Source of the DNA: a virus
Strand: one strand, 5' to 3'
Length of the DNA stretch: 64,000 bases
Virus genome (UHGV): UHGV-0060833
Under the pieces are notes generated by a model. The model ran no database searches. It was not told where the DNA came from and saw only the letters and a program-made list of their open reading frames with translations. Positions 33,493-33,568 of this stretch are shown piece after piece. Each line of letters starts with the position of its first letter. The stretch's first letter is position 1. The position numbers and the translations under genes were made by a program.

Positions 33493-33568
33493 GATGGTGT
33501 AGCTCAGCGTTTAGAGCGGTTGACTATTAATCAACGGGTCGATGGTTCAAATCCATCCACCATCGCCA
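33493..33568 (+). tRNA. tRNA; anticodon reads ATT (Asn-type, unusual A at wobble position 34)
   Basis: Full cloverleaf: acceptor GATGGTG/CACCATC, D-arm GCTC/GAGC, anticodon stem GTTGA/TCAAC with loop CTATTAA, T-arm GATGG-TTCAAAT-CCATC, discriminator G, encoded CCA. Confidence 0.8.

Follow-up and report, generated by a model that had tools for sequence, protein, structure and literature searches.

A tRNA-Asn gene with the anticodon ATT, located in a 64,000-nt stretch of viral DNA (the whole of it hereafter called the window), is by sequence comparison a recently derived double point mutant of trnA of phage P1, differing from its ancestral haplotype by G19U and G34A only. As to function, we hold it for about an even call that the gene is an impaired or decaying allele of the P1 accessory tRNA-Asn. 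Its carriers make up a small branch of the P1-type plasmid-prophages found in E. coli. Anticodons starting with A are almost absent from two-codon boxes in bacteria, and the cause of this is under active experimental study. The allele is a rare natural case of G34A in a tRNA-Asn, with a sampled ancestral haplotype and a linked second-site change, and so lends itself directly to testing if tRNAs of this kind can be tolerated and if they require damping. For annotation purposes, the gene should be treated as an allele of P1 trnA and not as evidence of unusual decoding by P1-type phages.

Structure of the gene and comparison with P1 trnA

ARAGORN detected three tRNA genes within the window. These genes, and the two positions at which the tRNA-Asn gene is altered, are as follows:

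33493-33568, plus strand: tRNA-Asn gene, derived allele of P1 trnA (ARAGORN, Rfam, P1 alignment)
33510, plus strand: G19 to T, second G of the conserved D-loop GG (alignment)
33526, plus strand: G34 to A, wobble base, changing GUU to AUU (alignment with P1, P7, Ro157c2, and Cyrano)
33571-33646, plus strand: tRNA-Thr(TGT), unchanged orthologue of P1 trnT (ARAGORN; Rfam 72.9 bits; 76/76 identical to P1)
35078-35153, plus strand: tRNA with CAT anticodon, unchanged orthologue of P1 trnI (ARAGORN; 76/76 identical to P1)

For the segment 33493-33568 (76 nt), ARAGORN reported a tRNA-Asn with the anticodon att at position 34, and Rfam model RF00005 gave 69.6 bits (gathering score 29; E = 2e-14) in the same cloverleaf register. 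In the sister record NZ_AP027786.1, the gene was annotated as tRNA-Asn by PGAP. Direct reading of the sequence yielded the acceptor stem GATGGTG/CACCATC, the D stem GCTC/GAGC with the D loop AGCGTTTA, the anticodon stem GTTGA/TCAAC with the loop CTATTAA (anticodon at 33526-33528), the variable loop GGGTC, the T stem GATGG/CCATC with the T loop TTCAAAT, and the discriminator G followed by an encoded CCA. As in canonical elongator tRNAs, there are 7 bp in the acceptor stem, 4 bp in the D stem, 5 bp in the anticodon stem with a 7-nt loop, and 5 bp in the T stem, and U33, the purine A37, a TTCRA-type T loop, and G73 are kept. The canonical G18-G19 of the D loop is not kept, G19 being replaced by T. 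In ViennaRNA predictions the cloverleaf was both the minimum-free-energy and the centroid structure; according to this folding model, the transcript of the mutant trnA is able to form the cloverleaf. The initial annotation, which had been made from the sequence alone, had described a canonical cloverleaf with ATT at this site and a tRNA-Thr(TGT) 2 nt away, and both descriptions were borne out, with the tRNA-Asn gene lying upstream. Its remark that A34 is seldom encoded by bacteria is correct as well. A second anomaly, the change of the D-loop GG to GT by the T at 33510, had been overlooked. Another fold or register with a standard anticodon, named there as the finding that would speak against ATT, was rejected, as ARAGORN, Rfam, and ViennaRNA converge on one cloverleaf.

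The region is 98.8-99.1% identical to phages P1, P7, D6, RCS47, and SJ46 and to many P1-like plasmids. In P1, the orthologue is trnA, annotated as tRNA-Asn (NC_005856, 69348-69423) and located downstream of dmt, the C1-controlled Pban promoters with the operator Op72, and a dicF-like region. It is directly followed by trnT and then by tciA, tciB, tciC, trnI, and ban, and the same order was found in the window. The position between dmt/Pban and trnT in the leader of the ban operon and the near-identical sequence mark the gene as the trnA orthologue, its anticodon being ATT and not GTT. It also shares orientation, discriminator G, and encoded CCA with P1 trnA.

The comparison with the P1 orthologue, which had been proposed in the initial annotation, was carried out and uncovered exactly two differences within the 76 nt, 74 bases being the same (alignment with P1 and P7). 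The anticodon is GTT in P1, P7, Ro157c2, and Cyrano. Position 33510 is linear position 18 of the gene and corresponds to standard position G19; it is separated from 33526 by 16 nt. Compared to P1 trnA with GTT and G19 (74.5 bits in Rfam), the window allele with ATT and T19 loses 4.9 bits through the two changes.

Frequency and age of the allele

To determine the allele frequency, a query of 91 nt spanning the tRNA-Asn gene was used. The identical allele was present in one of 403 matching records among complete E. coli genomes and in one of 400 among PLSDB plasmids, both being the same record, and the next-best matches were all wild type with two mismatches. Intermediates with a single change at 33510 or 33526 were absent from the matches in both collections, and about 800 P1-like records from the E. 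coli and plasmid collections, which are overlapping sets, kept the ancestral base at both positions. A degenerate pattern requiring ATT and leaving room for diverged relatives found no match in one genome per species, IMG/VR, and JGI metagenome contigs; the same pattern with GTT found at least 120 in IMG/VR. With the position left free in the pattern, the D-loop GG was invariant in 125 IMG/VR relatives, and a pattern with the mutant D loop and a free anticodon had no match in three collections (genomes, viral, and metagenome contigs). An ORF overlapping the tRNA genes was of no use for counting carriers, since the protein collection lacks its mutant version and all 13 members of its cluster are wild type. 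Gene conversion from another tRNA gene was rejected, as no donor with either change was found in E. coli, the per-species genomes, or the viral and metagenome contigs.

Restriction of the allele to a single record was true for the three annotated collections and was overturned by a lookup of contigs encoding exactly the Dmt, TerB-family, and RdgC proteins of the window in NCBI drafts, ENA, and Logan read assemblies. The double mutant was recovered from five independent assemblies of different sources and projects, namely one Logan assembly of raw reads (SRR31145580) and four NCBI assemblies (GCA_038072475.1, GCA_032291065.1, GCA_032291105.1, and GCA_036504395.1). These carriers vary in IS content, and from 36630 on the sequence of GCA_032291105.1 is recombinant; the block around the tRNA gene is identical in all. 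One identical block in five independent assemblies indicates that the allele is real and transmitted. A sequencing or assembly artefact of a single record, for which the single carrier per collection (complete genomes and plasmids) might have spoken, is thus refuted by identical double mutants with differing IS content and one recombinant downstream flank, and retains next to no probability. In the carrier contigs compared, the mutant D loop (33510T) was always accompanied by 33526A.

Wild-type copies of the same haplotype were also found. Over 9,906 nt (25153-35058), one wild-type contig (L140, Logan SRR11484299) differs from the window at 33510 and 33526 only, another (L136) has three differing sites in 8,426 nt, two of which are 33510 and 33526, and several further wild-type contigs share multi-kb blocks differing solely at these two positions. 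The existence of such copies indicates that the allele is young and lineage-restricted. Judged from the alignments, ATT arose recently in one sub-lineage by a G-to-A substitution, and P1-type phages do not share it as a conserved non-standard decoder. Two independent neutral substitutions would land in the same 76-nt gene within 9.9 kb with a probability of about 6e-5, and one clustered event comprising both changes with a probability of about 8e-3; both values overstate the significance, as the window was picked because it is anomalous and the P1-like haplotypes sampled number in the hundreds. The low chance of two neutral hits hints at one clustered event or at selection. Most likely, the changes would have arisen in one clustered mutational event or in quick succession.

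Segment by segment, the window is 99.9-100% identical to plasmid p2017-03-3CC_3 (NZ_AP027786.1) of E. coli from human faeces in Viet Nam. This plasmid bears three IS insertions (two ISVsa5 and one of the IS91 family), all of which are missing from the window, the respective junctions being located at 21593-21606, 27123-27127, and 57665-57674. The window is therefore an uninterrupted, IS-free sister of the plasmid. In NZ_AP027786.1, one ISVsa5 copy splits the terminase gene pacA; the pacA ORF of the window (57369-58562; 397 aa) is intact. Because of the absent IS elements and the intact terminase ORF, decay in a defective prophage was rejected as an explanation for the window.

Predicted effects of the two changes and rival explanations

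In the D loop of tRNAs, G18 and G19 pair with psi55 and C56. The G19-C56 pair is the outermost tertiary Watson-Crick pair of the tRNA elbow and locks the D and T loops, and the elbow is recognised by the ribosome as well as by RNase P and modification enzymes. Tgt exchanges G34 of tRNA-Asn for queuine, and together with U35, U36, and G73 this G34 forms the identity set of E. coli AsnRS. In the mutant gene U35, U36, and G73 are present and G34 alone is lost.

In an impaired tRNA-Asn allele, G19U would abolish the G19-C56 pair, thereby lowering stability and hindering processing and ribosome transit. G34A would make the insertion of queuosine (Q34) by Tgt impossible, remove one anticodon determinant of AsnRS, and leave the anticodon AUU, which would be cognate to AAU only. 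The net effect of both changes would be a weak or dead tRNA, and its loss would be tolerated, given tRNA-Asn(QUU) from the host and the repression of the ban operon by C1 in the lysogen. The reduced tRNA model score (-4.9 bits), the untouched trnT and trnI, and the invariance of the D-loop GG in the 125 relatives support this reading. It is opposed by the finding that two of two differences in 9.9 kb fall within one 76-nt gene (about 6e-5 if neutral), and by the prophage of the window, which is not obviously defective (pacA intact), relaxed selection being an assumption. Also, Asn-tRNA(AUU) matures and complements, so that G34A alone need not kill function (bioRxiv 10.64898/2026.05.15.725136). 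A further opposing result comes from the nearest-neighbour model, in which the predicted share of the cloverleaf rises from 0.6% in the wild type to 5% with G19U, 6% with G34A, and 33% in the double mutant, which ranks 40th of 3,915 possible loop double mutants; this comparison was made post hoc, ignores tertiary contacts and modifications, and was recorded as unexplained. The initial annotation had left the choice between an unusual phage tRNA, a non-standard decoder, and an inactive copy. The loss of G19 favours an inactive or impaired copy, and ATT is no property of P1-type phage tRNAs, P1, P7, and all other relatives having GTT.

The effect of G34A alone can be estimated from a 2026 preprint (Raval et al.), in which every ANN anticodon was engineered in E. 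coli and such tRNAs were found to mature (bioRxiv 10.64898/2026.05.15.725136). Plasmid-borne Asn-tRNA(AUU) complements deletions of asnU and asnV, its overexpression reduces growth of E. coli, two-codon-box ANN genes in nature are sporadic and always stand beside a GNN gene, and the one two-codon-box tRNA for which I34 was inferred is Phe-AAA, not Asn-AUU (bioRxiv 10.64898/2026.05.15.725136). By analogy with these activity and growth data, G34A alone would probably leave the tRNA active and mildly harmful. The further loss of G19 speaks for a reduced function.

That the tRNA-Asn still works, with altered decoding, appears rather unlikely. Such a tRNA would be charged by AsnRS via U35, U36, and G73, and its A34 would read AAU by Watson-Crick pairing or, if deaminated to inosine, AAU, AAC, and AAA, with G19U merely lowering efficiency. 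Cloverleaf, U33, A37, T loop, G73, and CCA are all intact, and with AUU, decoding stays on the Asn side of the codon box. In the element, AAT is also the commoner Asn codon (609 AAT vs 548 AAC; 52.6%), and the complementation of the asnU and asnV deletions by E. coli Asn-tRNA(AUU) points in the same direction (bioRxiv 10.64898/2026.05.15.725136). The allele also outlasted, in different carriers, three IS insertions and a recombination downstream, but persistence across a handful of SNPs is uninformative on function. Moreover, G19 is invariant in all relatives, G34 is an established determinant of AsnRS, and ATT is unused by any relative beyond the one haplotype.

The engineered E. coli Asn-tRNA(AUU) has the same G34A change in a host asn body with intact G19 and is active and mildly deleterious when overexpressed (bioRxiv 10.64898/2026.05.15.725136), whereas the window allele is natural and phage-borne and has a second mutation, in the elbow. 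The A34 tRNAs retained in bacteria, namely Arg-ACG (deaminated by TadA), Leu-AAG, and Thr-AGU (some Firmicutes and Mollicutes), also encode A34. They belong to four-codon boxes, recur as conserved genes in multiple genera, and frequently take the place of the GNN isoacceptor (bioRxiv 10.64898/2026.05.15.725136), in contrast to the window allele, which belongs to a split box, is confined to a single plasmid haplotype, and stands alongside the GUU genes of the host. A conserved A34 decoder would be expected clade-wide in a four-codon box; Asn has a split box, and wild-type copies exist on the same haplotype.

Selection of the pair of changes is an unlikely explanation in our view, and it has two versions. 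In the first, the G34A tRNA would misread Lys codons as Asn and G19U would then be selected to damp the harm. In the second, the changes would make the phage tRNA insensitive to a host tRNA nuclease, e.g. one like colicin E5, which needs G/Q34-U35, or one like PARIS AriB, which recognises the D loop and the anticodon arm. The sole two differences in 9.9 kb strike the two most functionally loaded unpaired bases of one gene, and damping of harm agrees with the lowered growth of E. coli overexpressing Asn-tRNA(AUU) (bioRxiv 10.64898/2026.05.15.725136). However, the allele is rare and limited to one haplotype, toxicity in lysogens should be small since the operon is C1-repressed, and with hundreds of P1-like haplotypes sampled, it is unsurprising to meet a tRNA gene hit twice in one clustered neutral event.

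Regarding nucleases, AriB of PARIS cuts E. coli tRNA-Lys(UUU), Thr(UGU), and Asn(GUU) at U36-A-A-U-C|A41 (PMC12409363), and the P1 pair of Asn(GUU) and Thr(UGU) thus corresponds to two of its three main targets (PMC12409363). Resistance of T5 tRNAs to AriB has been located in the D loop and, within the anticodon arm, at positions 39 and 41 (PMC12409363), and phage tRNAs with a changed anticodon loop have been proposed as nuclease escapes (PMC10264068). The resistant T5 variants are likewise phage-encoded Asn(GUU) and Thr(UGU) tRNAs with determinants in the anticodon arm and D loop (PMC12409363), but they keep their anticodons and G19, and the changes in the window are at 34 and 19 and not at 39, 41, or 16. 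Known escape variants retain the anticodon, the mutant tRNA-Asn still has the motif U36-A-A-U-C|A41 at which AriB cleaves, and no experiment or comparative signal ties the allele to any nuclease. Quite improbable, finally, is the combined proposition that a P1-type plasmid lineage can keep a split-box Asn-AUU only if G19U accompanies it, the pair being selected for attenuation or for nuclease escape while still decoding Asn.

The neighbouring tRNA-Thr(UGU) (33571-33646) has G39, giving U36-A-A-G-C-A. Position 39 is the one changed in Mut1, an AriB-resistant T5 tRNA-Lys (U39 to A) (PMC12409363). The P1-type tRNA-Thr may be a counter-defence tRNA.

The ban operon leader and neighbouring elements

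Upstream of the tRNA genes, two elements were assigned by comparison with P1:

32794-32839, plus strand: Pban promoters and C1 operator pair Op72 (homology; P1 annotation transferred by alignment)
33000-33026, plus strand: terminator-like hairpin followed by a T run (scan; P1 annotation, end of the dicF-like region)

Pban and Op72 form the head of the C1-repressed ban operon, which contains the three tRNA genes. A simple promoter scan gave no match for Pban at 32794-32839. Within the operator, position 32826 is A in the window and T in P1, so that Op72a reads ATTGCTCTAATAAATTA vs ...TTT in P1; the position also lies within the annotated -10 element of P2ban. This A differs from all 50 IMG/VR relatives spanning the site. 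It is common to both tRNA alleles of the haplotype, the site being invariant in the comparisons of wild-type and mutant contigs. The hairpin at 33000-33026 is followed by a run of seven T, one more than in P1, and separates the tRNA genes from Pban. For the tRNAs to be expressed from Pban, read-through or a separate promoter would be needed. Creation of a promoter by the two changes in the tRNA-Asn gene was considered and rejected, none being found in either allele.

A perfect direct repeat of 16 nt, GCACAACAGGTAAGGG, flanks the pair of tRNA-Asn and tRNA-Thr at 33208-33223 and 33647-33662. Its downstream copy is the 5' arm of a 97-nt hairpin at 33644-33740 (-42.8 kcal/mol, z = -4.8), which encloses the T-arm-like sequence AGGGTTCGAATCCCT. 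The interior of this hairpin may be a remnant of a third tRNA, an idea prompted by relatives that carry tRNA-Tyr or tRNA-Ser nearby, or a processing structure. In one contig among the IMG/VR relatives (loci L007-L126), a chimeric gene consists of the 5' half of tRNA-Asn and the 3' half of tRNA-Thr (...AACGGGTCGTCAGCGGTTCGAGTCCGTTAACCGGCACCA), which looks like a deletion via recombination between the two adjacent tRNA genes.

The CAT tRNA at 35078-35153 was called Met(cat) by ARAGORN and is annotated as tRNA-Ile in P1 and by PGAP; we take it to be tRNA-Ile2, read through lysidine. Just upstream of the TerB-family gene, the segment 34225-34344 (plus strand) gave a sub-threshold Rfam match to the sRNA STnc100 (41.9 bits; gathering score 47; E = 6e-7).
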